Assembly (NCBI GenBank): GCA_963835595.1
Contig: CAWIGL010000003.1
Span: 509,620 to 573,619 of the forward strand
Direction: 5' to 3'
DNA length: 64,000 bases
Source of the DNA: an uncultured delta proteobacterium
Lineage (GTDB): Bacteria > Desulfobacterota > Syntrophorhabdia > Syntrophorhabdales > WCHB1-27
A program made the position numbers and the translations under genes. This document shows positions 36,159 through 51,723 of the stretch, one piece after another. The notes under the pieces were generated by a model. That model ran no database searches and was not told where the DNA came from. It worked only from the letters and a program-made list of their open reading frames with translations. The first letter of the stretch is position 1, and each line of letters starts with the position of its first letter.

Positions 36159-36189
36159 GAATCTCTGTTATTTTCTCTTTTATTTTCGC

Positions 36190-36249: not shown

Positions 36250-36281
36250 CGCAAACCAGCCTATGGAACGGGAGGTACGCG

Positions 36282-37860
36282 ATGGGCGGCATATGCGTTC
36301 ATATCGGTGAGATGCTGGCGCGGAACGCGCGAATGTATCCGAACGACGTGGCCCTCGTCGAAAGGATACCCGCGGAGGGGAAACGCAAAGAGATCACGTG
36401 GAAGGAATTCGACGACCGCGCCAACAGATTCTCCAGGGTACTCTCGGAAAAGGGCATCAGGAAGGGCGACAAGGTCGTCCATTTCATGAACAATTCGATA
36501 GAGTGGCTTGCCGCCTATTTCGGCATAGTCAGAACGGGCGCCTGGGCGGTTCCTCTCAATTTTCGCTTTACCGCCGATGATCTGAGGTATTGCGCAGACG
36601 TCGCGGAGCCTAGCCTGATGGTCTTCGACGAGGAGTTCTCACCCAGGGTCGCAGCAGTCAAGGATCAATTGTCCGTCCGGGATTATATCTGCCTGGGCGA
36701 TAATATCCCGGACTACGCCGAAAATTTTTCAGAGCTTGTAAACGGCGCCTCCCCTGCGCCTTTGGGCACGGAGCTGGGCCACGACGATGTCTGCGGCCTC
36801 TACTTTACCTCGGGGACGACGGGCCAGCCGAAACCGATACTCCTTACCCACAAGAATATGATATCGGCCTGCATCACGGAACATGCCCACCACCATCAGA
36901 CCAGGAAAGACATCTTTATCCTCATCCCACCCCTCTACCATACGGGCGCCAAGATGCATTGGTTCGGCAGCCTTATCGTGGGTGGGTCGGCGGTGATCCT
37001 CAGGGGCGTCTCCCCTGAATGGGTCCTTGAGGCAGTGAGCGAGGAAGGGGGAACGATTGTCTGGCTCCTCGTCCCCTGGGCGCAGGACGTTCTGCTGAAG
37101 CTCGACTCCGGTGCGCTCAAGCCGGAGAACTACAAGCTCGGCCAGTGGAGGCTGATGCACATAGGCGCCCAGCCCGTCCCTCCGAGCCTTATCCTGCATT
37201 GGAGGGATTACTTCCCGAGCATGGAGTTTGACAATAACATGGGCCTCAGCGAGGCTACCGGGCCAGGGTGCGTCCACCTGGGGATCGAGAACCGGCATAA
37301 GGTCGGGGCTATCGGCGTGCCGGGGTTCAACTGGGAGGCGCGGGTCGTCGATGAGAACGGCAGCGACGCGCCCGTCGGGCAGAACGGGGAGCTTATCGTC
37401 CGTGGCGACGGGGTTATGCGGGAGTACTACAAGAACCCCGAGGCGACGTCGAAGACGCTCAGGGACGGTTGGCTCTTCACCGGAGATATGGTCCGGTGCG
37501 ACGAAGACGGGTTCCTCTGGATCGTCGACAGAAAGAAGGACGTGATCATAACGGGCGGGGAGAATGTCTTTCCCGTGGAAGTGGAAGATTTTATCCATAC
37601 CAATCCGAACGTAAAGGATGCCGCAGTCATCGGCTTGCCCGACGAGAGGCTCGGTGAGATCGTAGCCGCCATCATAGAAGTGATACCCGGCAAGACGGTC
37701 ACGGAGGAAGAGATTCTCAAGTTCCTGGAACCCCTCCCCCGGTACAAACGACCGAGGAAAGATCTTCTTTGGCGAAATCCCCCGGAACCCTACCGGCAAG
37801 ATCGAAAAGCCGAAGCTCAGAAAAAAATACGCAGGCAGGGAGGAGGCATTCAAGGCCTAG
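36282..37860 (+). CDS. AMP-forming acyl/aryl-CoA synthetase; one frameshift at about 37760
   Basis: YFTSGTTGQPKPI, YHTG, FTGDMV, DRKKDVIITGGENVFP. The true tail RK|IFFGEIPRNPTGKIEKPKLRKKYAGREEAFKA* is recovered in a shifted frame. Confidence 0.85.
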
Positions 37861-37916
37861 CGAGGCGGCTGAAGGAAGTCCTGGAGCGCGCGTGAGGCCG
37901 CAGGAGGCAGTAAGGC

Positions 37917-38726
37917 ATGGCGGTAGTCAAATCGGCGGACAGGGTCGTGCAGATACTTGAGGCGATAGCCTCCAAGGATGGGGGCCTGGCCAACAGCGAG
38001 CTTTCGACGATGCTGGGCATTCCGAAGGGCAGCCTCTCGTTCCTCCTTTCCAACCTTGTCGAGCGCGACTACCTGTCCTTCAATCCCCAGCGAAAGCTTT
38101 ACAACCTCGGAGCAGGGCTGCTCGTTCTCGTCGGCCGGTATCTGAACAACCTCGATATCGTGCGGGTGGGGCGTCAGATCGTCCGCAGACTCGTCCGGGA
38201 ATTGAATGAGGATGTCGAGATCGTCGTCAGAAGGGGGGACCAGATGCTCTTCCTCTATAAGGACGAATCGCAGAGACCCGTCAAGTACTCCATCGCGGCC
38301 GGCGGCCTCGGCCCCCTCTACGCGATATCGGCGGGAAAATGCATCCTCGCCTTCATGCCTGAGGAGGAGGCCGGCGCATATCTCGACCGTGTAGCGCTTT
38401 CCCCCATTACGGAGGAGACTATCACCGACAAGAACGTCCTGAAGCGCGAGCTTGAGGCGATACGCTCTAGCTGGCTGGCGTACGGGCGGCAGGAATACTA
38501 CGACAACGTCTGCGGGATCGCCGCCCCGGTGCTCGACATTCACGGCGCTATCGCGGGCGCGGTTGTGGTCACTATGGAGGCCGCCCGCTTCAACCCGGAG
38601 CACAGGGCTTTTATCGAGCCCAGGCTGCGCGATGCAGCCTCAAGGCTCTCCCGCCGGCTCGGCTTCGGGGGCCCATACGGCGGCCCCGCCGTTCGAAAAG
38701 CCGCTCGATCGAAAAAGGAGGACTGA
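37917..38726 (+). CDS. IclR-family transcriptional regulator
   Basis: VKSADRVVQILEAIA...NSELSTMLGIPKGSLSFLLSNL wHTH plus an IclR effector domain. Confidence 0.85.
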   Translation: MAVVKSADRVVQILEAIASKDGGLANSELSTMLGIPKGSLSFLLSNLVERDYLSFNPQRKLYNLGAGLLVLVGRYLNNLDIVRVGRQIVRRLVRELNEDVEIVVRRGDQMLFLYKDESQRPVKYSIAAGGLGPLYAISAGKCILAFMPEEEAGAYLDRVALSPITEETITDKNVLKRELEAIRSSWLAYGRQEYYDNVCGIAAPVLDIHGAIAGAVVVTMEAARFNPEHRAFIEPRLRDAASRLSRRLGFGGPYGGPAVRKAARSKKED

Positions 38727-38729
38727 GCG

Positions 38730-39260
38730 ATGGGAACGATGAAAGACAGCAAAAAAACATCCGGCCGGGCGCCTTCCATCACCCTGACCGTCAACGACCG
38801 ACGGTACGAGCTGGAGGTCGGACAGGGCGAGGGGGAGTTGCAAGTCTCGGACACGCTGACCCATACCCTCAGGGAGACGCTGGGCCTGACGGGCACCAAG
38901 CTCTCGTGCGACAACGGCGCGTGCGGGTGCTGCACCGTCCTCATAAACGGGAAGGCCAGGCTCTCCTGCATGACGCTCACGGTCGAGTGCGACGGAAAGG
39001 AGATAAGGACCATCGAAGGGCTGAGGGACCCCGTAACGGGCAGTCTCGACCCCATTCAGCAGGCATTCGTAGATCATACGGCGTTTCAGTGCGGGTATTG
39101 CACGCCGGGCATGATTATGAGCGCAAAGGCCCTCCTCAACGACAACCCCCGACCGACGGAGGACGAGGTGAAAGAGGCTTTGTCCGGCAATTTCTGCCGG
39201 TGCATCAGCCACTACCATGTGGTCAGGGCCGTCCTCGCAGCGTCGGAGAACGTGAGGTGA
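38730..39260 (+). CDS. Xanthine-dehydrogenase-family enzyme, [2Fe-2S] small subunit
   Basis: CDNGACGCCTVLINGKA..SC and CGYCTPGMIMSA...GNFCRC motifs. RBS AAGGAGG. Confidence 0.9.
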   Translation: MGTMKDSKKTSGRAPSITLTVNDRRYELEVGQGEGELQVSDTLTHTLRETLGLTGTKLSCDNGACGCCTVLINGKARLSCMTLTVECDGKEIRTIEGLRDPVTGSLDPIQQAFVDHTAFQCGYCTPGMIMSAKALLNDNPRPTEDEVKEALSGNFCRCISHYHVVRAVLAASENVR

Positions 39261-39264
39261 TAAA

Positions 39265-41562
39265 ATGGCCGACAAGTACCGATACATAGGCAAGGCTTCA
39301 CCCAGAAAAGACGCCGTTGACATCGTCACGGGGGCAACCAGGTTCCTCGACGACAACAAGCAGATCAAGTTTCCCGACCTCCTCCACGCAAAGGTGCTCC
39401 GCAGCCCCCACCCCCATGCGCTTATAAAGAAGATCGACTGTAGCAAGGCGCGGGGATTGAAGGGCGTCAAGGCGGTGCTTACCTGGGAAGACGTCCCCGA
39501 TTGGAAGGGGGGCACGCCCAGGGTGCTTCGCATCCTCGACCGCAAGGTCCGGTTCGTCGGCGATGCGGTCGCCCTTGTGGCGGCCGTCAGCGAGAGGATA
39601 GCCAAGGAGGCCCTTCGTCTTATCGACGTGGAATACGAGGTCCTTCCGGCGGTCTTCGACGTCGATGACGCCCTCAAGCCCGGCGCCCCCCAGTTGCATG
39701 ACGACCTTCCGGGCAATATCGCCACGCCGGGGTCGGGCATTCTCGGCCCGAAGGGGCTGACGCAAGTGGTCATGGGGGACGTGAAGAAAGGTTTTGAAGA
39801 GGCCGACGTCATAACCGAAGGGACCTTCGGGTACGAGAAGACGCCGAACCCTATCCCGCCGGAGCCTCCGGGCGTCGTTGCCCTCTGGGAGGATCCGAAC
39901 AAGGCCACCTTCTGGGTCGCAAATCAGTCGCCCTACCTCGACAAGATCGCACTCTACCACAATTTCGGCAGAAAGATAGACGTGAGGATTCACGGGGGTC
40001 CGTGCGGAGGGAGCTACGGATCGCGGACCATGTCCTGGCAGATGCAGACATACGCGCTACTGCTGAGCAAGGCCACGGGCAGGCCCGTGAAGCTCATCCT
40101 GACCAAAGAGGAGCACCTGGCCACGTTCACGCTCAGGCTCGGCTCCCGTATGCGCGCAAAGGTAGGCATGAAAAAAGACGGGACCGTGACGGCGATATCG
40201 GGCACGTGGCTCGTCGGGACGGGGTACTACTCCTTCAGCACCCAGTTTATGGTCGGGGTCGGGGCCGGTGAAGCCCAGTTGATGGTCCGATGCCCGAACT
40301 GGGACCTGAAGCCCATCATCGTCTGCACCAACCGCAACGCCTCCGGGCCGGTCCGAGGCTTCGGCGGCCAGGAGCTCAAATGCGCCCTTATCCCCCTCCT
40401 CTGTCTCGCTATGGAGAAGGCGGGCGTCGATCCCCTCGAATTCTTCAAGAAGAACTTTGCCAGGCCCGGCGACGGGTACTTCTGGAGGGACGGCATCTGG
40501 TATACCTACAGGGGGGCGGAGTATTGGAGGGCGATGGTGAAAGGGGCCGAGCGTTTCGGATGGAAGGAGAAATGGAAAGGGTGGCTCAAGCCCAGCTCGG
40601 TGGACGGCGCGAAGCGCAGGGGCGTAGGGGTCGGCATCCACGGAAATGCAGACGTGGGCGAGGATTCATCGGAGGCGCATATCTACCTTCGGCCGGATGG
40701 AACGGTGCTTGTTAATTCGAACCTTACGGAGCACGGAACAGGGCAGTGGAGCAACCTGCACAAGATGGTGGCCGAAGTGCTGCAAGTGCCCCTGGACCGC
40801 GTAACGGTCACTCCGTCGGACACGCTCTTCAACCCTTACGAGTTCGGACCGTCGGGGTCAAGGGGTACATACGCAATCGGCAGCGCATTCATAAACGCGG
40901 CCGAAGACGCCAGGAAGAAACTCCTCGAGATCTTTGCCCCCATGCTCAACGAAGACCCGCAGGGCCTGGACACGGTCGACGGGATGGTCTTCAGGAAGAA
41001 TAACCCGGACAAGAAGATACCGTGGCGCGCGATGGGCTTCGACCGGACCGTGACCGGGATAGGGCGCTTCGAGCCTGATTACACCATGTCCAACTGCATG
41101 ACGACCTTTGTCGAGGCGGAGGTCGATACCGAGACCGGTAAGGTGGACCTGGTGCGCGTCGTCAATGCAACCGACGTGGGCCAGATCATAAACCCGCAGG
41201 CCCTCGAAGGCCAGCTCAACGGGTGCCTGGGGTCGGCGGGCCTCGACAGCGCCCTCTTCGAGGAAACGGTCCTCGACCCTTCGACCGGACGTATGCTCAA
41301 CGCCAACATGATCGACTACAAGTGGCGCACCTCCTCGGAGCTGCCCCCGATAGAGAACGTGGTCCTTGAGACGCCTTTTCCGACCCACCGCTTCGGAGCG
41401 ATAGGGGTCGGGGAAGTTGCGACGGCGCCGGGGCCTATAGCAGTCCTCATCGCCGTCTCGAACGCCATCGGCACGTGGGTGCACGAGTACCCCCTTACAC
41501 CGGACAAGATTCTCAGGGCCCTCGGGAAGTTGCCGCCCGTCCGTCAAGGAGGTGTCTCATGA
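39265..41562 (+). CDS. Xanthine-dehydrogenase / aldehyde-oxidase-family molybdopterin-binding large subunit
   Basis: 765 aa with an a/b-hammerhead N-terminus (YIGKASPRKDAVDIVTGATRFLDD...AKVLRSPHPHA.IKKID) and C-terminal GAIGVGE. Confidence 0.9.
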   Translation: MADKYRYIGKASPRKDAVDIVTGATRFLDDNKQIKFPDLLHAKVLRSPHPHALIKKIDCSKARGLKGVKAVLTWEDVPDWKGGTPRVLRILDRKVRFVGDAVALVAAVSERIAKEALRLIDVEYEVLPAVFDVDDALKPGAPQLHDDLPGNIATPGSGILGPKGLTQVVMGDVKKGFEEADVITEGTFGYEKTPNPIPPEPPGVVALWEDPNKATFWVANQSPYLDKIALYHNFGRKIDVRIHGGPCGGSYGSRTMSWQMQTYALLLSKATGRPVKLILTKEEHLATFTLRLGSRMRAKVGMKKDGTVTAISGTWLVGTGYYSFSTQFMVGVGAGEAQLMVRCPNWDLKPIIVCTNRNASGPVRGFGGQELKCALIPLLCLAMEKAGVDPLEFFKKNFARPGDGYFWRDGIWYTYRGAEYWRAMVKGAERFGWKEKWKGWLKPSSVDGAKRRGVGVGIHGNADVGEDSSEAHIYLRPDGTVLVNSNLTEHGTGQWSNLHKMVAEVLQVPLDRVTVTPSDTLFNPYEFGPSGSRGTYAIGSAFINAAEDARKKLLEIFAPMLNEDPQGLDTVDGMVFRKNNPDKKIPWRAMGFDRTVTGIGRFEPDYTMSNCMTTFVEAEVDTETGKVDLVRVVNATDVGQIINPQALEGQLNGCLGSAGLDSALFEETVLDPSTGRMLNANMIDYKWRTSSELPPIENVVLETPFPTHRFGAIGVGEVATAPGPIAVLIAVSNAIGTWVHEYPLTPDKILRALGKLPPVRQGGVS

Positions 41563-43910
41563 GGCCTTTTTCCCACATCGACGCCCATTCGATAGAGTCG
41601 GCGCTTGCCGCGTTGAAGCGGTACGGGGGCAAGGCCCGGCTTTTCGCGGGCGGCACGGACGTCTTGGGCGCGCTGAAAAACGAATTTCTTCCCGGCTACC
41701 CGGAGGCGATCATCAACATAAAGGGCATCGAAGGGCTTGACGCCGTCCGTGAGGATGCAGGAGGGCTGAAGATCGGCGCCCTTGCCACCCTTGCCGAAAT
41801 AGCCGCCTCACCATCGATCAACGAGCGATATAAGGCGCTCGCCGAAGCGGCCCGCTCCGTTGCAACGCCCCAGGTCAGAAATGCGGCGACAGTCGGCGGA
41901 AACCTCGCCCAGGACGTCCGCTGTTGGTACTACAGATATCCCGACGCCCTGGGAGGGCAAATCGTCTGCCTGCGAAAGGGGGGCAAGACGTGCAACGCCC
42001 TTTTCGGGGACAACAGGTATCACTCGATATTCGGCTCGGCCCCGATGGAGCAATATCCGTGCTCTTCACACTGTCCGGCCTCGACCGATATACCCCTCTA
42101 TTTGAGCAAAGTCAAGAGCGGCGACCTTTCGGATGCAGCCGGGATACTTCTCGCAGCCAATCCGATGCCGGCCGTCACCGGGAGGGTCTGCCCGATGTTC
42201 TGTGAGCCCGCGTGCAACCGCGCTGGGCACGACGAGCCCGTGGCCATACGCTGCGTCGAGCGGTTCCTGGGTGACCGCATCCTCGAAGAACCGGCCCGGT
42301 TCTTCAGGCCCCCTGCTACTGAATCGGGGAAGAAGGCGGCCGTTATCGGCTCCGGGCCTGCCGGGCTTGCGGCGGCCTATTATCTCAGGAAGCACGGACA
42401 CGGGGTGACGGTCTTCGAGAGGGCGCCGGCGCCGGGAGGTATGCTCGTCTCCGCGATACCGCCCTATCGCCTGCCGAAAGGCGTTGTAGAGAAAGAGATT
42501 CGGGCCCTGGAGTCCATGGGGATCGCGTTCAGGTGCGGCGTTGCCGTCGGAAAGGACCCGACCACGGCACGCCTCATGGAAACTTTCGACGCGGTTTTTG
42601 CAGCGGCGGGCGCGTGGAAGGAGCGGTCCCTGGGGATCAAGGGCGAAGAGATCGCGCTGTCGGGACTCTCCGTCCTCAACAGGGTGAATACGGGCTTCCT
42701 GGAGATGCCTTGGAAGAAGGTCGCCGTGATCGGCGGCGGGAATGTCGCCATCGATGTGGCAAGGACGCTTCTCAGGCTCGGCGCCAGACCCGTAGTGCTC
42801 TACCGGCGGACCCGGAACGAGATGCCGGCCCTGAAGGACGGGATCGTCAAGGCGGAAGAAGACGGCATCCCTTTCAAGTTCCTTACCTTGCCGATGGAAG
42901 CGGCCCGGGTAAAGGACGGTGTCCTTCTGACGTGCAGGCGCATGAAGCTCGGGTCTCCCGACGCATCGGGCAGGCGAGCCCCGGTTCCCAGGGAAGGCTC
43001 GGATTTTACCATGACCGTCGATGCGGTTATCAAGGCCATCGGCGAAGAGCCGGACAGATCGTTTCTCCCTGCGGACCTGAGACGGAGAATAAAAGTCGGA
43101 GGCGGGTCCCCGCTTTTCTTCGACAAAAACCTCTTTGCAGGCGGCGACTTCGTGACCGGCCCCTCGACGGTTATCGAGGCCGTGGCCTCCGGGCGCGATG
43201 CGGCGCGCGCCATACATGCGTGGCTCCGGGGCGACGAGCCGTCGCTGCCGGCCCGCGAAGCCGGGCCTCGCTTCACCGCGCCTTCCTACGATCCGACCGC
43301 CCGTATAAAAGTCCCTGTTATGCCAAAGGCCGAACGGATCAAGGGCCTGGACGAAGAAGACGGGGGCGCGGCGGCCGAGGCCGTAATCGCAGAGGCCGGG
43401 AGGTGCTTCAATTGCGGCTGCGTGGCGGTAAGCCCTTCGGATATAGGCCTGGCGCTCGTAGCGCTCGACGCGCGCATCGTGACAACCAAGCGGGCCTTGA
43501 GCGCGGAAGAGTTCTTTTCCGCCACCGCAGCGCGCTCGACTGTTCTCGGCGGCGACGAGTTGATAACCGAAATTCAAGTTCCGAGGCCGGCTGCGGGCGC
43601 GCGACAGGTGTACTCGAAGTTCACCTTGCGAAAACCTATCGATTTTGCCATTGCCGGCGTCGCGTGTGTCGTTACCATGCGAGACGGCGTCTGTTCCAAG
43701 GCCCGTATCGCCCTGGGCGGGGTGGCTGCGGAGCCTGTGCGGGCGAGGGAGGCCGAGAAATTCCTCGCGGAGCGTCGGATCGACACCCCAACGGCTGAGG
43801 CGGCAGCGCAATTGGCGGTAGAGGGGGCAAGGCCTTTGAGCGATAACGCCTACAAGGTCGAGATTATCAAAACCCTCGTGAAAAGGGCCATCGTCTCCGC
43901 AAGCCGTTAG
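41559..43910 (+). CDS. FAD-binding subunit of the Mo enzyme with an inserted GltD/NfnB-like Fe-S + NAD(P)H-flavin module (783 aa)
   Basis: The ATG overlaps the upstream TGA. The N-terminus is CO-dehydrogenase-flavoprotein-like (LFAGGTDVLGALK, ATVGGNLAQ). The insert follows: CPASTDIPLYL...TGRVCPMFCEPACNR...KKAAVIGSGPAGLAAAYYL...VAVIGGGNVAIDVART...LFAGGDFV. The C-terminal flavoprotein domain then resumes (YSKFTLRKPIDFAIAGVACV...ARIALGGVAAEPVR). Confidence 0.8.
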   Translation: MRPFSHIDAHSIESALAALKRYGGKARLFAGGTDVLGALKNEFLPGYPEAIINIKGIEGLDAVREDAGGLKIGALATLAEIAASPSINERYKALAEAARSVATPQVRNAATVGGNLAQDVRCWYYRYPDALGGQIVCLRKGGKTCNALFGDNRYHSIFGSAPMEQYPCSSHCPASTDIPLYLSKVKSGDLSDAAGILLAANPMPAVTGRVCPMFCEPACNRAGHDEPVAIRCVERFLGDRILEEPARFFRPPATESGKKAAVIGSGPAGLAAAYYLRKHGHGVTVFERAPAPGGMLVSAIPPYRLPKGVVEKEIRALESMGIAFRCGVAVGKDPTTARLMETFDAVFAAAGAWKERSLGIKGEEIALSGLSVLNRVNTGFLEMPWKKVAVIGGGNVAIDVARTLLRLGARPVVLYRRTRNEMPALKDGIVKAEEDGIPFKFLTLPMEAARVKDGVLLTCRRMKLGSPDASGRRAPVPREGSDFTMTVDAVIKAIGEEPDRSFLPADLRRRIKVGGGSPLFFDKNLFAGGDFVTGPSTVIEAVASGRDAARAIHAWLRGDEPSLPAREAGPRFTAPSYDPTARIKVPVMPKAERIKGLDEEDGGAAAEAVIAEAGRCFNCGCVAVSPSDIGLALVALDARIVTTKRALSAEEFFSATAARSTVLGGDELITEIQVPRPAAGARQVYSKFTLRKPIDFAIAGVACVVTMRDGVCSKARIALGGVAAEPVRAREAEKFLAERRIDTPTAEAAAQLAVEGARPLSDNAYKVEIIKTLVKRAIVSASR

Positions 43911-43978
43911 GAGAAGGCAGCCGGCGCATAATAAGGCCGGGGCGAGGGAGCTAAGAGTGCGGCATCACAGGGAAAACT

Positions 43979-44003
43979 CCCTCTCCCTGATGAGGGGAGA
44001 GGG
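43979..44003 (-). terminator. Hairpin terminator for the minus-strand operon, abutting a G-tract
   Basis: CCCTCTCCC / GGGAGAGGG stem with a 7-nt loop. On the minus strand it is followed by AGTTTTCC. On the plus strand it is followed by GGGTGGGGGTGGGGGTGGGGGTGAGGG (44001-44027). Confidence 0.5.
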
Positions 44004-44046
44004 TGGGGGTGGGGGTGGGGGTGAGGGCATATTCTTTCACATGTTC

Positions 44047-44331
44047 TCACCCGCCGCCGACGATGAGCATGTTGACCGCTACCGTGTCCCCGTCGTTCAG
44101 AGCCGAGTCGAGTCCCCCGCACAAATGTAATTCGACGTCGTTGACCCTCACTTCCCAGTCGTCCTCGATATCGGCAGCGCTGTCCTTGACATACCGCACG
44201 TTTCTGGCGCCCGCCATAACGGACAGCTCTTCCAGGAATTGCCCGACGCTAACGGCGGGCCGGTCGAGCTCGACGCTTTCCCTGCCTTCAAGCCCAGGCA
44301 GAAAAATGTTCGACTTTAAATGAATCACCAT
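44047..44331 (-). CDS. MoaD/ThiS-family ubiquitin-like small protein (C-terminal GGG)
   Basis: 94 aa ending ...NDGDTVAVNMLIVGGG*, a beta-grasp sulfur-carrier-like pattern. Confidence 0.6.
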   Translation of the reverse strand: MVIHLKSNIFLPGLEGRESVELDRPAVSVGQFLEELSVMAGARNVRYVKDSAADIEDDWEVRVNDVELHLCGGLDSALNDGDTVAVNMLIVGGG

Positions 44332-44357
44332 TACGCGCCTGTTCCCTCAACTCAAAC

Positions 44358-45422
44358 TCAATAGTCGTAGGCCGTCGGCACCTTTTTCGACTTTTCCTGC
44401 CGCTTCCAGTAGTCGATGCGCTCGTTGATGAAGCCGAGCCACGTGTCTACCTCGGCAGGCTTGTAGCCCTTCGACGTCATATCTTTCTTGAACTCCACGA
44501 TGACCGGCTCCGCGGCCTTGACCCACTTGGCGCTCTCCGCATCGCCTATCGCAACCATGCTGCCGCCCTGCTTGATAAAGAACTCCCTGCCCTCGATATC
44601 GATATTGTTCCACGCGACGGCCCATCTTTCGATGAATTCCTTGGAGTGCTCCGTTATCACCCTCTGCACGTCCGCCGGCAGGCTGTTCCATTTGTGCTTG
44701 TTCATGACTACATAAAAGGCGAAAACGCTCCCCACCTTCCACGACGCGGTCGTATACTTCTCCACTTCCCCCGTCTTCCAGCCCTTGAGCTGCTCCAGCG
44801 GACCGAGGTTGCCTTCGAGGACGCCCCTCCTCAGCGCATCATAGATGTCTGCCATCTCGAACGGCACAGGCACGGCCCCAAGGGCCTTCACTATATCCCC
44901 TATCCTTCCGGTGCCCCTGATCTTCAGCCCTTTCAGGTCTTCCAGCGTTCTCACCGGCTTGCTCAACGTCTGCAGGACGTTCGGCGGGCTTGTGCTGAAC
45001 ATGATGGGGTGGTAGTTGTCCCATTCCTTCGGCTTGAACTTCTCGTAAAAGTCGTTCGACACATGGGTGGCGATCCAACTGCTCGGAAAACCGAGGGGAA
45101 GCTCCATGATCTCCATGACGGGAAAACGGCCACGGGAGTACGAGCAGTGGGAAAGGCCGATATCGGCTATGCCGGTGGAGACGCCCGCCGCCATCTTGGG
45201 CGCGGAGAGGAGCGTGCCGCCCGTATACTGGCGGATCTCCACTTTCCCGGCGAGCTTCTTGTTCAGCTCTTCGCACCACTTCTCCATCATGGTCGAGTTC
45301 ATGTGGGTCGGCGGAAAGAAATTGGCGAACTTGAGCTTTATCACGTCCGCCGAGCTTACCGAATACGTCGATAAGACTACCGAGAAGATAAAGACGACTA
45401 TCGATGCGACTTTTCTTGTCAT
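44358..45422 (-). CDS. TRAP-transporter solute-binding protein (DctP family), no adjacent membrane subunits
   Basis: Signal peptide MTRKVASIVVFIFSVVLSTYSVSSA, then the DctP-like pattern (KLKFANFFPPTH..., LKGLKIRGTG...). Confidence 0.8.
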   Translation of the reverse strand: MTRKVASIVVFIFSVVLSTYSVSSADVIKLKFANFFPPTHMNSTMMEKWCEELNKKLAGKVEIRQYTGGTLLSAPKMAAGVSTGIADIGLSHCSYSRGRFPVMEIMELPLGFPSSWIATHVSNDFYEKFKPKEWDNYHPIMFSTSPPNVLQTLSKPVRTLEDLKGLKIRGTGRIGDIVKALGAVPVPFEMADIYDALRRGVLEGNLGPLEQLKGWKTGEVEKYTTASWKVGSVFAFYVVMNKHKWNSLPADVQRVITEHSKEFIERWAVAWNNIDIEGREFFIKQGGSMVAIGDAESAKWVKAAEPVIVEFKKDMTSKGYKPAEVDTWLGFINERIDYWKRQEKSKKVPTAYDY

Positions 45423-45520
45423 TTGCTTTGCCCCCTTTTTTTACTTTTTTACCCCCCGCAACTGCTTGCGTATACTTTCCCTTTCCGGCGCACCTCCTTT
45501 TATCCGTTGAGAACCGGCTG

Positions 45521-45997
45521 CTATTTTTTCGCCATCGCCTTTGCGGCCGCCATGACCGAATCGACGATCTGCTGGTAACCCGTGCACCGGCAGAGGTTGC
45601 CGGAGATCGCAGTCCGCGCCTCGAGGGGCGTAGGGTCCGGGTTTTCGTCGAGCAGCGCCTTGGCGGACATAATCATGCCGGGCGTGCAGAAACCGCACTG
45701 GATGCCGCCGTGCTGCACGAACGCCTCCTGGATCGGGTGCAGCTTCTCGCCGTCCGCCAACCCTTCGATGGTCGTGATGCTCCTGCCCTGCGCGTCGAGG
45801 GCGAGGACCAGGCACGAGGCGACGGGCTTGCCGTCCATAAGCACCGTGCACGCGCCGCACTCCCCTTCGCTGCACGACTTCTTGGTCCCCGTGAGGCCGA
45901 GCTTGTCGCGGAGCACCTCCACCAGCGTCAGGTGCGATTCTATCCCTATGGCGTAGGCAACGCCGTTTACGGTGAGCGTCAATGGAACCGGGGTCAT
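45521..45997 (-). CDS. Xanthine-dehydrogenase-family enzyme, [2Fe-2S] small subunit (second set)
   Basis: CSEGECGACTVLMDGKPV.SC and CGFCTPGMIMSA...GNLCRCTGY. The ATG at 45997 overlaps the upstream stop. Confidence 0.9.
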   Translation of the reverse strand: MTPVPLTLTVNGVAYAIGIESHLTLVEVLRDKLGLTGTKKSCSEGECGACTVLMDGKPVASCLVLALDAQGRSITTIEGLADGEKLHPIQEAFVQHGGIQCGFCTPGMIMSAKALLDENPDPTPLEARTAISGNLCRCTGYQQIVDSVMAAAKAMAKK

Positions 45998-46881
45998 CGT
46001 GCTCCTCCTTCCGTCGATCGATTGAGCGCAGCGATCAGGGCCCGCCTGGTAAGCACCTCGACCATGCTGCAGCGATAGTCCAATGAAGAGCGGACATCCG
46101 TGATGGGCCTGCAGACGGCGCCGCATACCCTGCCCACCTCGGCGGCAAGCCCCTCGGTGAGGACCTTGCCTTCCAGCATCCCCTCCGCCTCCGTAGCCAT
46201 GATGGGCGTAGGGGCAACTGCGCCGAGGGCGACCTTTGCAGACCGGCACACCCCGCCCTTATCGAGGAAGACGAAGGCTGCGGCGCCGACGAGGGCGAGG
46301 TCGAGGGCCGCTCGCCGCATCAGCTTGAGGTAGGCCCCTTTCCCTTTGGGGTCGGGGAGAGTTATGTGCGTCAGGATTTCCGCTGCGCCGATGGTGCAGG
46401 CAGCAGGCCCGGCGAAAAGGCCCCCGACGTGACAGGTGCGCCCGCCCGCGGGACCGGTGATATGCGCCTGCGCAGACAACACCATCAGGGGCGGCGCCAT
46501 GTCTGCCGAAGGGACGGCGCTCACGAGGTTCCCCCCTATCGTCGCAAGCGTCCTGACCTGGGGGGAGGCCATCACGGAGGCCGCGTCCCAAAGCGGCGTG
46601 TAGACCTCCCTGATTACCTCCGAGCGCAGGATTTCGGCAATCGTCGTTAAGGCGCCGATGGTGAGACCCTGGGCATCGACCTTTATGCCCGAAAGCCCTT
46701 CGATGCCCTTGAGGTTGATAAGGTGAGACGGCGCAGCCGTGCGCTTTTTCATAGCGAGGAGAAGGTCCGTCCCGCCTGCGAGGAGCTTCGCGCTGCCGCC
46801 GAAGGCGCCAAGGAGGTCGAGCGCTTCGGGAAGCGAGGCGGGCGCGTGGTATTCGAATTTCGGCAATCTTCTGATAAACAT
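45994..46881 (-). CDS. FAD-binding (CO-dehydrogenase-flavoprotein-like) medium subunit (second set, conventional size)
   Basis: MFIRRLPKFEYHAPASL...LLAGGTDLLLAMK...TIGGNL...LKLMRRAALDLALVGAAA. 295 aa with no insertion. Confidence 0.85.
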   Translation of the reverse strand: MFIRRLPKFEYHAPASLPEALDLLGAFGGSAKLLAGGTDLLLAMKKRTAAPSHLINLKGIEGLSGIKVDAQGLTIGALTTIAEILRSEVIREVYTPLWDAASVMASPQVRTLATIGGNLVSAVPSADMAPPLMVLSAQAHITGPAGGRTCHVGGLFAGPAACTIGAAEILTHITLPDPKGKGAYLKLMRRAALDLALVGAAAFVFLDKGGVCRSAKVALGAVAPTPIMATEAEGMLEGKVLTEGLAAEVGRVCGAVCRPITDVRSSLDYRCSMVEVLTRRALIAALNRSTEGGAR

Positions 46882-49166
46882 CACTTTCCCTCCTTTTTCT
46901 TCAGCTCCGCGAGGATCTTCTCCGGCGTAATGGGGAGGTCCCTGATGCGGACGCCCACCGCGTCGTAAACGCCGTTGGCGATGGCCGCGATAGTCGAGCA
47001 GGAGCTTGCCTCGCCTGCCCCCTTCGCCCCGAACGGGCCGTAGGGGTCGTGGGTGTGCACGTGGTCTACGATGTACTCCGGGGTGTCGAGGGCGGTAGGC
47101 TGTTTGTAGTCCCTCCAGGAGTGGTTGAGCATAACCCCGTGCCCGTCGTAAAGGGCCTCTTCGAGGAGGGCGTGGCCGGTCATGTGCGCCGAGCCCCCGT
47201 TCACCTGGCCTTCCAGCATAACGGGATGGATGGGCTGGCCCGCGTCGTCGGCGCTCACGCCTTTCCGCAGGCTCACCTTTCCCGTCTCCAGATCGACGTC
47301 CATCTCGACGGCCGTCGCGATGAAATCGATGCCGTGGGCGAGGTTCCCCGCGCCCGTCTTCCAATCGACGAGGTCGATGTCCGTCGCGGCCCAGTAGCCC
47401 CTGCCGTAAAGCGGCGTGCCCATATCGTAATAGGCGGTCCTGACCGCATCGATGAACTTCATGCCTTTCTTCGGGTCGTCCTTGACGTATATCCTCGAAC
47501 CCTTGAATTCGAGGTCTTCAGGCTTGCCGCCCAGTTTCTTTACCGCGATCTCCGCGAGCTGACGTTTCAGATCGTTGGCCGCCGCTATCGTGGCGTTTCC
47601 GTCCCAGTACGTGCACCGGTCGGAGAACATGCCGGAGTCGAGGATCGCCGTATCCGAGTCGCTCGGCCCCTGTATCACGTCCCCGAAGGCGATGCCCAGG
47701 ACCTCGGCGGCCATCTGGCAGAAGACCGTGTTGCAGCCCTGGCCGATCTCCGTGCCGCCGTGGGTCAGCACGATTTTGCCGTCTTCCTGGAGCTTGAGAA
47801 GGACCGACGACCCGAAATGGCCGCCCAGCCTCACCCCCGACGGGTGTGACGCGCAACTGAAGCCTATGCCGCGCCCTTTCGGGCGGGACTTCCTGCTTTC
47901 CTTCCAGCCGATCGTCCCCGCCGACTTCTCGATGCATTCGGGAAGGCCGCAGACATCGACGACAACGCCGTTCGCCGTAGTCCAGTTGTTCGTCACCGCG
48001 TTGACGGACCGTATCTCCACCTGGTCGATGCCTATCTCCTCGGCCACGATGCCGAGCAGGGAATCGACCGCGTACTGGGCCAGCACGATCTCCTGCCCCC
48101 TTACCGTGCCGCAGGGCGCCCTGTTCGAGTAGACGAGCTTGCCGTGATACTCGACGGCGGGCACCTTGTACGGAAGGTTGAGCCACGCCCCGAAGAAATA
48201 GATATTGAAAGGGCCGATGCCGGAGATAGGCCCGCCTTCCAGCACGCACTCCGCCTTGAGGGCCGTGATCTTGCCGTTCTTCTTCACCCCAATCTTCAGG
48301 GTGGCGTCCATCGCGTTGCGCTGCCTGTACCCCGCGAGCACCTCATCGTAATTGAGCACGATCTTGACGGGCCGGTTCGTGACCTGCGCCAGCCTGACCG
48401 CCGCGAAATCGACATCGAAGGGGTCGTGCTTGCCGGAGAATGCGCCGCCGACAAAGGGCGTCACCAGGCGCATCTTCGACAGTGGCAGGTCCAGTGCCCT
48501 GCACATGTGGCGCCAGGTCGGATAAGGGCTCTGCTTGGAGCCCTGCAAAAGGACGCGCCCCGTCGAGTCCACCTCCGCGAGGCACGCATGGGGCTCGATG
48601 AAGCCGACAGCCACGCGCTGGGAGCTGAATTTCTCCTCCCTTATGTAGTCCGCTTCGCTGAATCCTTTCTCCGGGTCTCCGAACATGAAATCGGAGGTAT
48701 AGGCGATGTTGCTCGTGCAGAACTCGTTGACCAGGGGGGCGCCGGCCTTAAGGGCGTCCTGCGCGGTCAGCACCACGGGCAGCTCTTCGTACTCGACCTT
48801 GATAAGGTCGAGGGCCTCTTCCGCCGTATCCTCGTCGATAGCCGCGACTGCGGCTACACCTTCGCCGAAATGGTGCACCTTCGTCACGGGCATGGGCAAC
48901 TGGTCCCGCGTGTCGGGCCTCGTGCCGAAAGGGATGCCGGGGAAATCCTTCCCCGTTATGACCGCCAGCACCCCCGGAAGCTTTTTCGCCCTGCTCGTAT
49001 CGATGTCCAGTATCTTCGCATGGGCCAGGGTGCTCCTCAGTATCTTGCCGTGGAGCATCCCCGGCGCAACGAGGTCACCCGCGTAGCGCGCCTTGCCCGT
49101 AGCCTTGACCCGCCCGTCCGTCCTCTCCACGGGCTTGCCGACCACCTGGTATTCTTCCCTCTCCAT
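46881..49166 (-). CDS. Xanthine-dehydrogenase-family molybdopterin-binding large subunit (second set; 4-hydroxybenzoyl-CoA-reductase-like candidate)
   Basis: MEREEYQVVGKPVERTDGRVKATGKARYAGDL...GKILRSTLAHAKILDIDTS... 761 aa from ATG 49166. The upstream part of the 803-aa ORF is an extension. Confidence 0.85.
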   Translation of the reverse strand: MEREEYQVVGKPVERTDGRVKATGKARYAGDLVAPGMLHGKILRSTLAHAKILDIDTSRAKKLPGVLAVITGKDFPGIPFGTRPDTRDQLPMPVTKVHHFGEGVAAVAAIDEDTAEEALDLIKVEYEELPVVLTAQDALKAGAPLVNEFCTSNIAYTSDFMFGDPEKGFSEADYIREEKFSSQRVAVGFIEPHACLAEVDSTGRVLLQGSKQSPYPTWRHMCRALDLPLSKMRLVTPFVGGAFSGKHDPFDVDFAAVRLAQVTNRPVKIVLNYDEVLAGYRQRNAMDATLKIGVKKNGKITALKAECVLEGGPISGIGPFNIYFFGAWLNLPYKVPAVEYHGKLVYSNRAPCGTVRGQEIVLAQYAVDSLLGIVAEEIGIDQVEIRSVNAVTNNWTTANGVVVDVCGLPECIEKSAGTIGWKESRKSRPKGRGIGFSCASHPSGVRLGGHFGSSVLLKLQEDGKIVLTHGGTEIGQGCNTVFCQMAAEVLGIAFGDVIQGPSDSDTAILDSGMFSDRCTYWDGNATIAAANDLKRQLAEIAVKKLGGKPEDLEFKGSRIYVKDDPKKGMKFIDAVRTAYYDMGTPLYGRGYWAATDIDLVDWKTGAGNLAHGIDFIATAVEMDVDLETGKVSLRKGVSADDAGQPIHPVMLEGQVNGGSAHMTGHALLEEALYDGHGVMLNHSWRDYKQPTALDTPEYIVDHVHTHDPYGPFGAKGAGEASSCSTIAAIANGVYDAVGVRIRDLPITPEKILAELKKKEGK

Positions 49167-49194
49167 TATTGCCCCCTTGTCGGATTTGTGCGCG

Positions 49195-50853
49195 TTAAAT
49201 CTTCCCTTCTTTTTCCATCTTATTTTTGATCTCCTCCCGCAGGGCCTTCTTGTCCACCTTGCCCACCTTCGTGAAAGGCAGCACCTCGACAAGCTCGACC
49301 CTTTCGGGCAGTTGCACGACCGAGGCCCCGACGCCCTTCAGGAACGATACGATATCTTCGAGGGTAGGCGCAAAACCAGGCTTCGGCACTACGAAGGCGC
49401 AGGTCCTCTCGCCCAGTATCTTATCCGGCATGGCGACGACGGCCGAGTCGGCAACTGCCGGATGCATGCTCATCATGTTCTCGATCTCGACTGCGCTGAT
49501 GTTCTCTCCGCCCCTGATAATGATGTCCTTTATGCGGCCCGTGACCCAGATGTTCCCCTCCTCGTCCTTCTTTGCCTGGTCGCCTGTCCTGAAAAAACCG
49601 TCCTTCGTGAAGACCTTCGCCCTGTCCTCCTCCGAGGAGTCGAAATAGCCCGTAAAGACACCCGGCCCCTTCGATACGAGCTCGCCTTCCCCGTTGACGG
49701 GCAGCTCCCTGTCTTCCTGATCGACGACTTTCAGCTCGTCGTACGGGCAGATAGGCTTGCCCACGCTGCCGCATATGAGGTCTATGCTGTCGCCCAGCTT
49801 CGTGCTGGAGCAGGTCCCTTCCACCGAGCCGAACCCGTTGACGAACTGGGCGCCGATCCTCTCACGGACGCTCTTGACCAGCTCGTGGGTGCTCGACGCA
49901 CCGCCGACGGAGACCTTCTTGAGGGAGCTCAGATCGTAGTCGCCCAGGTTCTCCATCTGCATGACCCTCGCGATCAGCGCGGGGACGGTCGGGATCGCAG
50001 TCACCTTCTCCTTCTCGATCCAGGCGCATATGTCTTCGGGCTTCGTCGAGTCGAGGAGCACCAGCTTTGCGTGGCAGAAAAGCGACGCAGCCATCCCCCA
50101 GTGGACGCTCAGGTTGTGGCCGAGGGGGGCGATGACCATGACCGTGTCCTGGCACGTCAGGTCCCACCGGTACGTGTGGTACTCGACATTGTTCCAGTAG
50201 CAGTTGTGCGTGCGGGGACTGAGCTTCGGCAGCCCCGTCGTGCCTCCCGTCGGCAGGATCTGGGAGACCTCGTCGGGGTCGGGGCGCCTCTCTTCGAGGG
50301 CCTTGAGGGTCTGCGCCGTCAGCGCTTCCCGCGCAATCAACGTATCGAGCCGATGGTAGTCCGTCGCCTCCGATGGCCTCGCCTGGATGATGTGCTTTAT
50401 CTGGGGGTTTTCCTTGAGAACTGCGTCGATGGTCGGCTGGTAGGCGATCTTGCCGTACTGCTGCGGTAGGATCCACGCGACGGGCTTCGTCAGCCTGCTC
50501 AGGTGGTTGATCTCCAGCGCGTTGTGGCGCGGTATCAGCACTACGATAATGGCGCCTATCTTCTGGAGGGCAAGCCAGGAGAAGACGAACTCGTGCCAGT
50601 TCGGGAGCTGCAGAAGCACCCTGTCTTTCTCCCTGATGCCAAGCTCCATCAAAGCGACGGCCAGCTTGTCTACGGCCTCGCGCAGCTCCCTGTTGGTCCA
50701 GCGGCCTGCGTCGTCAACCAGGCCGATTTTCTCAGGGTAAATGTCGGTGTGCTTGTTGAAGAAGTCGCCCCAGGTCATGCCGAGCCACCACTTCAACGCG
50801 GTATACTTCTCTATGTCCGCGCCCACGTATGGCGCGCAGCCCTTTATAGGCAT
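49195..50853 (-). CDS. Aryl-CoA/AMP ligase (2,3-dihydroxybenzoate-AMP-ligase-like adenylating enzyme)
   Basis: LPTGGTTGLPK, GHNL, FRTGD, GRIKDIIIRGGENIS, C-terminal KVGKVDKK. 552 aa, intact. Confidence 0.85.
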   Translation of the reverse strand: MPIKGCAPYVGADIEKYTALKWWLGMTWGDFFNKHTDIYPEKIGLVDDAGRWTNRELREAVDKLAVALMELGIREKDRVLLQLPNWHEFVFSWLALQKIGAIIVVLIPRHNALEINHLSRLTKPVAWILPQQYGKIAYQPTIDAVLKENPQIKHIIQARPSEATDYHRLDTLIAREALTAQTLKALEERRPDPDEVSQILPTGGTTGLPKLSPRTHNCYWNNVEYHTYRWDLTCQDTVMVIAPLGHNLSVHWGMAASLFCHAKLVLLDSTKPEDICAWIEKEKVTAIPTVPALIARVMQMENLGDYDLSSLKKVSVGGASSTHELVKSVRERIGAQFVNGFGSVEGTCSSTKLGDSIDLICGSVGKPICPYDELKVVDQEDRELPVNGEGELVSKGPGVFTGYFDSSEEDRAKVFTKDGFFRTGDQAKKDEEGNIWVTGRIKDIIIRGGENISAVEIENMMSMHPAVADSAVVAMPDKILGERTCAFVVPKPGFAPTLEDIVSFLKGVGASVVQLPERVELVEVLPFTKVGKVDKKALREEIKNKMEKEGKI

Positions 50854-50910
50854 AGGATTGCCCCTCCTTTCTTATCCGGTCCCGTATCGATTCGGCCCCT
50901 CTACCGTAAT

Positions 50911-51723
50911 CTACAAGCCCTGCGCCACCTCTCGCTCTCTTTGACCTTCCCCGTCGAACCCGAGCCTGCGCGATATCCGCCCCGTTGCCTCTTTCAGCTT
51001 GCCCGCGATGGAACGGTGCTGCTCCGGGTCGAAATGGGACCGCAGAAGCGTCACTACGACGGATGCGGCCACATCCCCGTAAGCGTTGAAGATGGGGGCG
51101 GCTATCGCGTTCATATCCTCGTAATACTCGGCGTACCCGTAGGCGACCCCCTCCAAGCGGACCTTCGCGAGCTCCCGCCTCAGCGCTTCGGGGTCGGTTA
51201 TCGTGTTCGCGCTAAAGGCGGTAAGCGTCACGGAAGCCATGTACTTCGACATCTCGTCTTCGGGCAGGTACGCAAGGATAGCCTTCCCCGCAGCGGTCGC
51301 GTAGGCTGCCGCGCAATCGCCGACGGCTATCACGTGCCTCAGCGTCCTGGTGCTGTCCACGCCGTAAAGGAAAAGGACCTCCGTGCCCTTCATGATGGTA
51401 AGCTCGGCGTCCTCGTCAACCTCCGCAACCAGCTCGTGCATGATCGGCCTTGCGACGCGCACGAGGTTGTACGTAGACAGGTAGCGCGAGCTTAAGGCCA
51501 GGAGCTTCGGGCCGAGAAAGTAGCGCCTGTTCGACGCGGAATAGACAAGGTAATCGCGGCCGAGGAGATTGGACAGCAATGGCGTCAGGCTGCCCTTGGG
51601 AATCCCCGAGGTCCTGCACAGCTCGCCGTGGGTGATGCCGTTGTCCCTGGCGGCAATCGTCTCAAGTATGAGGATGACCCTGTCGGCCGATTTTACTATC
51701 GCCATATCGCCATTGTCGCGCAT
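50911..51723 (-). CDS. IclR-family transcriptional regulator
   Basis: VKSADRVILILETIA...HGELCRTSGIPKGSLTPLLSNL plus an effector domain. It is paralogous to 37917-38726. Confidence 0.85.
   Translation of the reverse strand: MRDNGDMAIVKSADRVILILETIAARDNGITHGELCRTSGIPKGSLTPLLSNLLGRDYLVYSASNRRYFLGPKLLALSSRYLSTYNLVRVARPIMHELVAEVDEDAELTIMKGTEVLFLYGVDSTRTLRHVIAVGDCAAAYATAAGKAILAYLPEDEMSKYMASVTLTAFSANTITDPEALRRELAKVRLEGVAYGYAEYYEDMNAIAAPIFNAYGDVAASVVVTLLRSHFDPEQHRSIAGKLKEATGRISRRLGFDGEGQREREVAQGL

Follow-up and report, generated by a model that had tools for sequence, protein, structure and literature searches.

A molybdenum enzyme with a split FAD subunit

The window analyzed here is a stretch of 64,000 nucleotides from an uncultured delta proteobacterium (contig CAWIGL010000003.1, positions 509,620 to 573,619). 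On its + strand lie the three subunit genes of a molybdenum (Mo) enzyme of the xanthine dehydrogenase (XDH) family, and the last of them, which encodes the FAD subunit, is the subject of this analysis. It is a single unbroken open reading frame (ORF) from 41475 (GTG) or 41559 (ATG) to 43910, with a product of 783 amino acids. The ATG shares 4 bp (ATGA) with the end of the Mo-subunit gene before it, including that gene's stop codon, and corresponds to residue 1 of the closest homolog (P0001), which aligns over residues 1–782 of both proteins at 85% identity.

Pfam finds four domains in the order FAD_binding_5, Fer4_20, Pyr_redox_2 and CO_deh_flav_C. FAD_binding_5 is split into two stretches, the best of which (residues 4–118, E-value 5e-33) covers profile positions 3–113 of 170; the other three domains occupy residues 165–243 (2e-21), 259–545 (3e-24) and 691–779 (1e-18). 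Two GltD-like NCBIfam models, PRK12814 and PRK12771, span residues 165–626 (E-value about 1e-123), while the match to the HcrB model, like that to XdhB, is broken into two stretches that lie apart. FAD_binding_5 followed by CO_deh_flav_C, with genes for a 2Fe-2S subunit and a molybdopterin subunit immediately upstream, identifies an FAD subunit of the XDH family. An earlier note, made from the DNA letters alone, had described a 783-amino-acid FAD subunit split by a module of the GltD/NfnB type. Pfam and NCBIfam confirm this, and every motif that it quoted is present in the ORF. The insert, given there as about 450 amino acids, is present and slightly longer (459 amino acids). The paralog at 45994–46881 is, as had been said, an ordinary subunit of 295 amino acids with one contiguous FAD_binding_5 domain.

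Insertion into a predicted iron-sulfur loop

Residues 1–161 align with HcrB (1rm6_B, 22–159), PaoB (5g5g_B, 13–154) and 5y6q_B (2–155), with HcrB as the best match for this N-terminal half. The alignment to 5y6q_B picks up again at N618-C-G-C621, opposite residues 155–326 of that protein. P0209, an unfused relative of 329 amino acids, is 60% identical to query residues 1–160 and, through its own residues 162–322, 46% identical to query residues 620–779; the junction reads “...HAIMGGKGC163FAV” in P0209 and “...HSIFGSA[162-619]GC621VAV” in the query. We then used as a search query the 325-amino-acid remainder left after in silico removal of the insert (residues 162–619). It matches more than 100 unfused FAD subunits of 323–349 amino acids at 99–100% coverage and 53–63% identity. 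Found in Desulfomonilaceae, Desulfatiglandales and other Thermodesulfobacteriota, these subunits are labeled YagS (PaoB)-like by the Joint Genome Institute (JGI). Because the insert-free protein aligns end to end with unfused subunits, the 459-amino-acid module is, on these alignments, cleanly inserted into an already existing subunit family.

C122, C137 and C145 of the query align with Cys122, Cys138 and Cys146 of HcrB, which in the 1RM6 structure bind a cluster that receives electrons from ferredoxin. C621, which follows the insert, is matched by the loop cysteine of 5y6q_B and by C163 of P0209. Four loop cysteines after about residue 115, kept family-wide, place the protein in the [4Fe-4S]-bearing HcrB/PaoB subclass and predict a cluster. 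By this comparison the insert is located inside the [4Fe-4S]-binding loop of that subclass, between the third cysteine (C145) and the fourth (C621), which sharpens the earlier view of a complete module lying somewhere within the FAD subunit.

An insert of the NfnL type

The insert consists of a Fer4_20 domain and an FAD/NAD(P)H domain that resembles adrenodoxin reductase and contains two GxGxxG/A motifs, the composition of a GltD/NfnB (NfnL)-like module. Its closest solved relative is the NfnL-like domain of NfnA in Thermococcus sibiricus NfnABC (9n5u_A, 1.9e-103); NfnA of Caldicellulosiruptor saccharolyticus NfnABC (9bov_A) matches at 1e-99 and Thermotoga maritima NfnB (4ylf_B) at 1.6e-84. 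Further solved relatives are StnC (8oh5_C), Pyrococcus furiosus NfnI-L, GltD and dihydropyrimidine dehydrogenase (DPD), the matches in the Protein Data Bank (PDB) ranging from 1e-62 to 1e-103. A Foldseek search with an AlphaFold2 (AF2) model returns NfnABC, StnC, NfnL, GltD and DPD at the top, the same ranking as by sequence. In this model the module core has a predicted local distance difference test (pLDDT) score of 80–95, and both Rossmann domains and the host halves are confident.

Among representatives at the 50% identity level, about a hundred other architectures contain a module with boundaries equivalent to residues 166–622, including standalone proteins of ~560 amino acids and fusions of 1100–1250 amino acids. 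In the standalone proteins the terminal motif runs on into a ferredoxin domain (RCFLCGTCNSCGNC...CP in P0154). The earlier note had seen the same type of module in an HdrA-like gene of the window (60194–62900) and had proposed a portable cassette. Pfam does find the module there (Fer4_20 at 159–237, Pyr_redox_2 at 252–546). The idea of a portable cassette holds at the level of the family, with many architectures and the HdrA-like gene as carriers; the two copies in the window, however, are only 42% identical over 406 amino acids, no nearer to each other than to unrelated NfnL-like modules (41–51%). There was therefore no recent shared graft, and a recent intragenomic copy common to the two genes is ruled out.

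Conserved candidate cluster ligands and nucleotide motifs

We examined conservation in an alignment of 26 family representatives reaching down to 34–37% identity. C122, C137, C168, C172, C211, C215, C219, C616, C619 and C621 are present in all of them, C145 and E234 in 25 each, with Lys as the exception at the latter position. The eleven conserved cysteines and Glu234 make exactly 12 ligands for three [4Fe-4S] clusters. C232 is not conserved across the 26 representatives and is rejected as a ligand.

The electron cryomicroscopy structure of C. saccharolyticus NfnABC offers a reference for these residues. There, NADPH reduces the module FAD, from which electrons pass to cluster A7 (ligands Cys108, Cys147, Cys151 and Lys170) and then to A6 and A3; the module FAD lies at the chain end and is not the bifurcating site (PMC11829005). 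C172, C211, C215 and E234 of the query fall on precisely these four ligands of 9bov_A, and T. maritima NfnB also has Glu at the position of E234 (“ERF”). Opposite the query motif RCFNCGC, the two NfnA proteins have RCLECGC and RCMSCGC. We infer a proximal cluster bound by C172, C211, C215 and E234 and a loop cluster bound by C122, C137, C145 and C621; by elimination, C168, C219, C616 and C619 would hold a distal cluster. If this assignment is right, C616-x2-C619-x-C621 would feed two adjacent clusters and thereby hold the exit of the module beside the entry cluster of the host. The junction motif, RCxxCxC(V/L)A, is kept throughout the family. The direct wiring of the Mo enzyme to NAD(P)H that the earlier note suggested has good support in this ligand pattern, from which it is predicted.

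Both dinucleotide motifs, G264-S-G-P-A-G269 and G392-G-G-N-V-A397, are invariant among the 26 representatives. After the second Rossmann motif the query has Y415-R-R, as in the NADPH-binding NfnA and NfnB. Among the representatives (P0121–P0159), 10 of 26 share this NADPH-like YRR, whereas 15 have CLE, which is NADH-like. The fused family thus seems to exist in NADPH-type and NADH-type versions, with the window protein of the NADPH type, and the pattern suggests that nucleotide specificity has been switched within it.

Spread and integrity of the fused architecture

The database survey that the earlier note proposed finds the split architecture in hundreds of independent assemblies from several phyla. 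More than 120 full-length homologs of about 781 amino acids (58–85% identity) come from many independent contigs. In clustering at 50% identity, the complete architecture is retained by about 30 clusters, with identities as low as 37%. A genome scan with one genome per GTDB species gives at least 562 genome stretches with a relative. We inspected the architecture in the best 80 loci, all of which keep it colinear. These 80 belong to Syntrophorhabdales, Syntrophaceae and other Desulfobacterota, to Dehalococcoidia, to Actinomycetota (Gaiellales, Thermoleophilia) and to Acidobacteriota, with one Leptospirales and one Bathyarchaeia metagenome-assembled genome (MAG). All of the best 80 of the at least 562 stretches are from MAGs, with no cultured carrier among them. 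The closest locus (L020) is in a Syntrophorhabdales MAG and is 88% identical. Several genomes have two paralogs of the fused gene, and across the several hundred species-level genomes with this design more than one paralog is often present.

Two relatives have arrangements of their own. P0145, a protein of 1730 amino acids, has a complete Mo subunit (about 890 amino acids) fused ahead of the NfnL-split FAD subunit, which takes fusion in this family one stage further. A Thermodesulfobacteriota locus (L086, 1–8972) has the two designs side by side: a fused trimer (order M-S-L, with a fused subunit of 789 amino acids) divergently adjoins an unfused one (order S-L-M, with an FAD subunit of 323 amino acids).

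Apparent indel frameshifts occur elsewhere in the window, at the 3' end of a CoA-ligase gene and in the HdrA-like region, and could raise the suspicion that the long ORF is itself two or three genes joined by assembly or indel errors. The probability of this is vanishingly small. Residues 1–782 are colinear with homologs from the hundreds of assemblies just described, the host halves flank the insert on both sides in a way that no simple gene fusion yields, and the junction motif is common to the whole family. The homologs, the genome stretches and the insert-free alignment together rule out an assembly or fusion artifact, and we regard the architecture as almost certainly real and ancient. 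Neither of the two findings that could have overturned the earlier description has emerged: the fusion is conserved, and we found no characterized enzyme class with this architecture.

Gene neighborhood

The fused gene closes a compact co-directional cluster (Table 1), in which the gaps between the genes for the ligase, the IclR regulator and the small, large and medium subunits are 21, 3, 4 and -4 bp. A consensus scan places a promoter-like site at 36190–36219, ahead of the CoA ligase. The solute-binding protein DctP, of the tripartite ATP-independent periplasmic (TRAP) transporter type, lies beyond the cluster and probably imports a carboxylate substrate. For the ligases of this cluster and of the paralogous one described below, NCBIfam gives only generic or below-cut-off matches, and no specific ligase family that would name the substrate.

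Table 1. Positions in the window of the parts of the fused gene and of its neighbors
Feature	Position	Strand	Remarks
Fused subunit, residues 1–161	41559..42041	+	N-terminal part of XDH-type FAD domain, with C122, C137, C145
Inserted GltD/NfnL-type module, residues 162–619	42042..43415	+	459 amino acids
Module: Fer4_20 domain, 165–243			two [4Fe-4S]
Module: FAD Rossmann fold			GSGPAG 264–269
Module: NAD(P)H Rossmann fold			GGGNVA 392–397, then YRR 415–417
Module: linker, about 560–612			
Module: start of RCFNCGC motif			C616, C619
Fused subunit, residues 620–783 and stop	43416..43910	+	C621, remaining FAD domain, CO_deh_flav_C
AMP-dependent acyl/aryl-CoA ligase	36282..37895	+	first gene of co-directional cluster; Pfam AMP-binding, E 7e-75
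IclR-family regulator	37917..38726	+	same blastp cluster as IclR gene 50911–51723; ends 3 bp before 2Fe-2S gene
Small subunit, 2 x [2Fe-2S] (XDH-family gamma)	38730..39260	+	Pfam Fer2_2, E 1.5e-30, and Fer2
Large molybdopterin subunit, HcrA-like	39265..41562	+	Pfam Ald_Xan_dh_C, MoCoBD_1, MoCoBD_2
Terminator-like stem-loop, G+C-rich, between convergent gene ends	43979..44003	-	9-pair stem, 7 G-C; consensus scan
TRAP solute-binding protein DctP	44358..45422	-	Pfam DctP, E 1.6e-45

We compared neighborhoods by clustering the ORFs of 83 loci with blastp. A Mo-subunit gene stands ahead of the fused gene in 73 of 74 loci, and a 2Fe-2S subunit gene is recognized in at least 52. A CoA-ligase homolog adjoins the fused gene in 20 of the 83 loci, almost all of them in Desulfobacterota of the nearest clade, and an IclR gene does so in 18 (IclR genes upstream of the trimer are also found in L001 and L084). 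A DctP gene follows the closest ortholog (in L083), and in the nearest clade CoA-ligase, IclR and TRAP genes are all frequent neighbors. The other neighbors vary and include major facilitator superfamily, TctABC and ATP-binding cassette transporters, short-chain dehydrogenases/reductases, alcohol dehydrogenases and further XDH-family paralogs. Unfused relatives can have operons of the same kind: L084 has an IclR gene with the trimer and AMP-binding genes nearby, and L085 a CoA ligase and DctPQM ahead of the trimer. In the three loci with unfused relatives (L084, L085, L086) we see no separate GltD-like gene beside the trimer, which would be the “split” ancestor; the unfused enzymes therefore presumably rely on a soluble carrier, like HcrABC.

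Directly upstream of the operon, a gene at 34056–36158 (+) encodes a hybrid protein with PAS, histidine kinase and receiver domains, which may have a sensory role in the pathway. An ORF of 94 amino acids (44047–44331, -), located between the fused operon and DctP, ends in ...IVGGG and has a weak, below-cut-off match to ThiS/MoaD (E-value 0.009); it may encode a ubiquitin-like sulfur carrier.

A paralogous cluster occupies 45521..51723 on the - strand, with an IclR gene (50911–51723; Pfam IclR_C), an aryl-CoA ligase (49195–50853), an HcrA-like Mo subunit (46881–49172), the 295-amino-acid FAD subunit mentioned above, which has no Fe-S loop, and a 2Fe-2S subunit (45521–45994). Its Mo subunit scores 646 bits on the HcrA model TIGR03194 and is nearer to HcrA than that of the fused operon, though still below the cut-off. 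This trimer is HcrA-like yet lacks the [4Fe-4S] loop, the site of the ferredoxin-entry cluster that defines HcrB.

Other genes of the window

A further cluster (54204–63983, -) encodes the alpha subunit of an electron-transfer flavoprotein (ETF; 63003–63983), the HdrA that carries the NfnL insert, another HdrA-like protein, a protein containing MvhD/FlpD (57065–58411), an HdrB/C-like protein with a CCG domain (55928–56506) and an HdrA-like protein with 2x[4Fe-4S] (54204–55931). The NfnL module of the HdrA-like gene has an NADPH-type motif, VVYRRT. The cluster probably encodes a complex for flavin-based bifurcation, which would likewise draw on a module of the NADPH type. Its HdrA-like genes (59063–62900, -) show at least three frame changes, with further breaks near 59600 and 59400; an HdrA-like ORF of 856 amino acids runs into junk after “...YEEFYK”, and the sequence goes on as “QEAGVRYIRGIPGEV...” in the ORF at 60194–60613. 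Taken together with the frame change in the CoA ligase, these breaks suggest homopolymer indel errors in the assembly. The window also contains Gram-negative envelope genes (BamA, LpxA/B/D, FabZ, MsbA, KdtA), which together with its Hdr/Mvh/ETF genes fit a syntroph of the Syntrophorhabdales kind.

A candidate electron path and its alternatives

It is tempting to hypothesize that the ferredoxin-docking loop of an HcrB-type subunit has served as a socket for a GltD/NfnL-type NADPH:Fe-S module. In the path we propose, NADPH would deliver hydride to the module FAD, and electrons would then pass through the proximal, distal and loop [4Fe-4S] clusters, with the ligands assigned above, to the FAD of the XDH-type domain, from there to the small subunit with its two [2Fe-2S] clusters and finally to the Mo cofactor. 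The junction C616-x2-C619-x-C621 would stitch module to host through ligands to two neighboring clusters. In this organism, a Syntrophorhabdales-like syntroph, an aromatic acid imported by the TRAP system would most likely be activated by the adjacent CoA ligase and then lose a ring substituent, e.g., a hydroxyl, by NADPH-driven reduction, and scarce reduced ferredoxin would be spared. Such a linear wire is the best-supported course; GltD-like modules generally serve in this way in glutamate synthase and DPD, and so does the nearest solved homolog, in NfnABC. The Mo subunit has HcrA as its best solved relative (1rm6_A, 7.6e-75), followed by quinoline oxidoreductase (4e-57); we favor the reductive direction because of this affinity to HcrA, the CoA-ligase operon and the NADPH-type motif. 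The explanation we prefer, and hold to be rather probable, is a self-sufficient, NADPH-dependent enzyme of the XDH family with three subunits, resembling an aryl-CoA reductive dehydroxylase. The module very likely serves the enzyme as an NAD(P)(H) port of its own; for the reductive aryl-CoA role specifically, we regard the balance as even.

Several observations weigh against this explanation. We found no biochemical data for any member of the family. All three subunits miss the cut-offs of the NCBIfam equivalogs for HcrABC (TIGR03194, 359 versus 995 bits; TIGR03195, 147 versus 405; TIGR03193, 160 versus 258), and orthology to HcrABC is thereby ruled out; by these scores the enzyme is HcrABC-like and not a 4-hydroxybenzoyl-CoA reductase ortholog, and its substrate therefore need not be 4-hydroxybenzoyl-CoA. 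In the AF2 model all three Fe-S regions have pLDDT <50 (with a predicted template modeling score, pTM, of 0.52), so it is silent on inter-cluster distances and on the packing of domains and served for the fold search only. The CoA ligase itself shifts frame, apparently by 1 nt, at an A-rich run at ~37755–37765: the annotated frame ends in Arg/Lys-rich junk, whereas the +1 frame (...GKIFFGEIPRNPTGKIEKPKLRKKY) gives a canonical C-terminus, ...RGKIFFGEIPRNPTGKIEKPKLRKKYAGREEAFKA, with a stop at ~37860, and either a 1-nt sequencing indel or a pseudogene would account for this. CoA ligases are, moreover, absent from most loci outside Desulfobacterota; given this and the varied neighbors, substrates must differ across the family and may be free acids. 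Even where a ligase is present it does not fix the direction, since XDH-family enzymes that hydroxylate CoA esters exist (furoyl-CoA dehydrogenase). Finally, HcrB Cys155 lies opposite Tyr154 of the query, so that the fourth ligand, C621, is placed as in PaoB and the 5y6q aldehyde oxidase and not as in HcrB, and PaoABC works oxidatively.

The last points bear on a reading in which the same wire runs in reverse, the main rival, which we consider unlikely though worth keeping in mind. The enzyme would then be an anaerobic hydroxylase or dehydrogenase acting on a (hetero)aromatic acid, CoA ester or aldehyde, with water as the oxygen source; electrons would exit by way of the loop cluster and then the module, with NADP+ as their acceptor (in the CLE-type relatives, NAD+), and the module would stand in for the external acceptor of PaoABC-type enzymes. 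Besides the fourth cysteine, the C-terminal half is nearest to the oxidative 5y6q_B and PaoB, the unfused relatives bear the PaoB-like JGI label, the usual catalytic Glu is kept near the C-terminus of the Mo subunit (GVGE), and more than half of the representatives have the NADH-like CLE, which is typical of catabolic dehydrogenases. The neighborhoods without CoA ligases also fit, and an NADP+-dependent nicotinate dehydrogenase is known, as are the CoA-ester hydroxylases. Against all this, it is clearly HcrA, of a reductive enzyme, that the Mo subunit resembles most, the window module has the NADPH-type YRR, and NADPH in cells is usually a reductant; an operon with CoA ligase, TRAP and IclR genes in a Syntrophorhabdales-type genome fits substituted benzoates being funneled to benzoyl-CoA. 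Still less probable is bifurcation or confurcation, in which the module FAD would act as in NfnSL, sending a low-potential electron down the Fe-S wire to Birch-like Mo chemistry and a high-potential electron to a second acceptor, or in which electrons from NADPH and ferredoxin would be combined. Reverse or confurcating flow in a reductive dehydroxylation had been offered as an example in the earlier note and may be plausible. The chemistry of 4-hydroxybenzoyl-CoA reductase is thought to need electrons more negative than those of NADPH. The predicted Cys3-Glu ligation of the proximal cluster is that of bifurcating NfnB and not the Lys type of NfnABC, and the window also encodes bifurcation machinery of the Hdr/Mvh/ETF type. 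However, neither an NfnS/NfnA-like gene (ferredoxin-NADP+ reductase type plus [2Fe-2S]) nor any other second-branch gene is conserved among the neighbors at the 83 loci, and no NfnS/NfnA partner is seen at window positions 36000–51800, though a partner could be encoded elsewhere. In the closest solved relatives, the module FAD is at the chain end and explicitly non-bifurcating (PMC11829005), and glutamate synthase and DPD use the same module linearly via very low-potential clusters (PMC8097209). It is a long shot that the module is a true bifurcating flavin site that would turn NADPH into very low-potential electrons for radical (Birch-like) dehydroxylation at Mo. If it were, this would be the first flavin-based electron-bifurcating enzyme of the molybdenum hydroxylase family and would explain how energy-limited syntrophs dehydroxylate rings without ferredoxin or ATP cost.

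For the preferred reading, an NADPH-fed reductase with a linear wire, the significance lies in the electron donor. To our knowledge, ferredoxin is the only donor described so far for the reductive removal of ring substituents by the XDH family (prototype: 4-hydroxybenzoyl-CoA reductase). Reduced ferredoxin is expensive for strict anaerobes and syntrophs, and the question of how they supply such enzymes would find a concrete answer in this locus, which probably represents a significant unrecognized route in the anaerobic degradation of aromatic, lignin-derived or heterocyclic acids. The protein also offers a natural domain insertion in which one CxxCxC motif would be common to two clusters, and it may be useful for engineering self-sufficient molybdoenzymes.

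Comparison with known enzymes

A PDB sequence search and Foldseek return no solved structure with the nested arrangement; no NCBIfam model reaches its cut-off on the fused subunit, and we found no curated family. The homologs carry generic source names (“FAD binding domain-containing protein” or concatenated COG names). A 2021 review of GltD-like modules treats glutamate synthase (GltS), DPD, Nfn and AegA/YgfT and has no XDH-family fusion (PMC8097209). The architecture is likewise undescribed in the full-text literature searched, outside of which many subscription papers lie, so that a passing mention is possible. Neither the components nor the general logic is new; what appears to be undescribed is the nested loop fusion, its breadth in uncultured anaerobes and the NADPH/NADH dichotomy.

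HcrABC of Thauera aromatica (1RM6/1SB3) shares with the present enzyme the three-subunit XDH-family layout and an extra [4Fe-4S] cluster, predicted in the latter, at the same loop position, where three of the four cysteines align; its substrate is a CoA thioester, which a dedicated ligase supplies. HcrB, however, has 324 amino acids and takes free ferredoxin as donor, whereas here a predicted NADPH/FAD/2x[4Fe-4S] module of 459 amino acids is built into the loop. PaoABC of E. coli (5G5G) and the Methylobacillus aldehyde oxidase (5Y6Q) have a loop of the same type (RCxYYR...C...C...H-x-I/V-x-G...C-x-A-x-x-P-S-D) and come closest to the query in the C-terminal half and in where the fourth cysteine stands. 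They differ in being aldehyde oxidoreductases that work oxidatively and that lack both a nucleotide-binding module and a CoA-ligase context, and their Mo subunits are more distant from the query than HcrA is.

Two other systems come close in composition or in chemistry. In the urolithin C dehydroxylase Ucd of Enterocloster, which reportedly acts on a free polyphenol and not on a CoA ester, we know of no fused nucleotide module. A role as a reductive aromatic dehydroxylase has been proposed for this XDH-family enzyme of a strict anaerobe (PMC11760930). In XdhD-YgfM-YgfK and AegA/YgfT of E. coli, whose GltD-like proteins have genetic ties to XDH-family enzymes and to the use of urate, a GltD-like NAD(P)H/Fe-S flavoprotein is paired with an XDH-family Mo enzyme and an FAD subunit, but as separate polypeptides, whereas here the GltD-like module and the FAD subunit form one chain. 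The YgfK model TIGR03315 matches residues 167–564 (5.5e-84) with 282 bits against a cut-off of 835; only the GltD-like part is matched, and a YgfK-type subunit (~1000 amino acids, separate) is ruled out. YgfM is not known to have an Fe-S loop. For AegA, a role in reductive urate degradation has been proposed (PMC8097209).

The insert itself is homologous over its full length to NfnABC/StnABC (9BOV, 9N5U, 8OH5), to NfnB of NfnSL (4YLF), to GltD and to DPD (1e-84 to 1e-103). With NfnA of NfnABC it has in common the linker and the RCxxCGC motif; at the proximal ligand, the query has Glu as in NfnB, where NfnABC has Lys. In all of these systems the module is an NADPH-FAD-2x[4Fe-4S] entry device, and GltD-like modules are described as handing electrons from NAD(P)H, by way of [4Fe-4S] clusters of low potential, to another protein or domain (PMC8097209). 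In Nfn, Stn, GltD and DPD, however, the module either forms a subunit of its own or is joined end to end to its partner (Fdh-like, dihydroorotate-dehydrogenase-like or ferredoxin domains), whereas in the family described here it is nested within the predicted cluster loop of its host.

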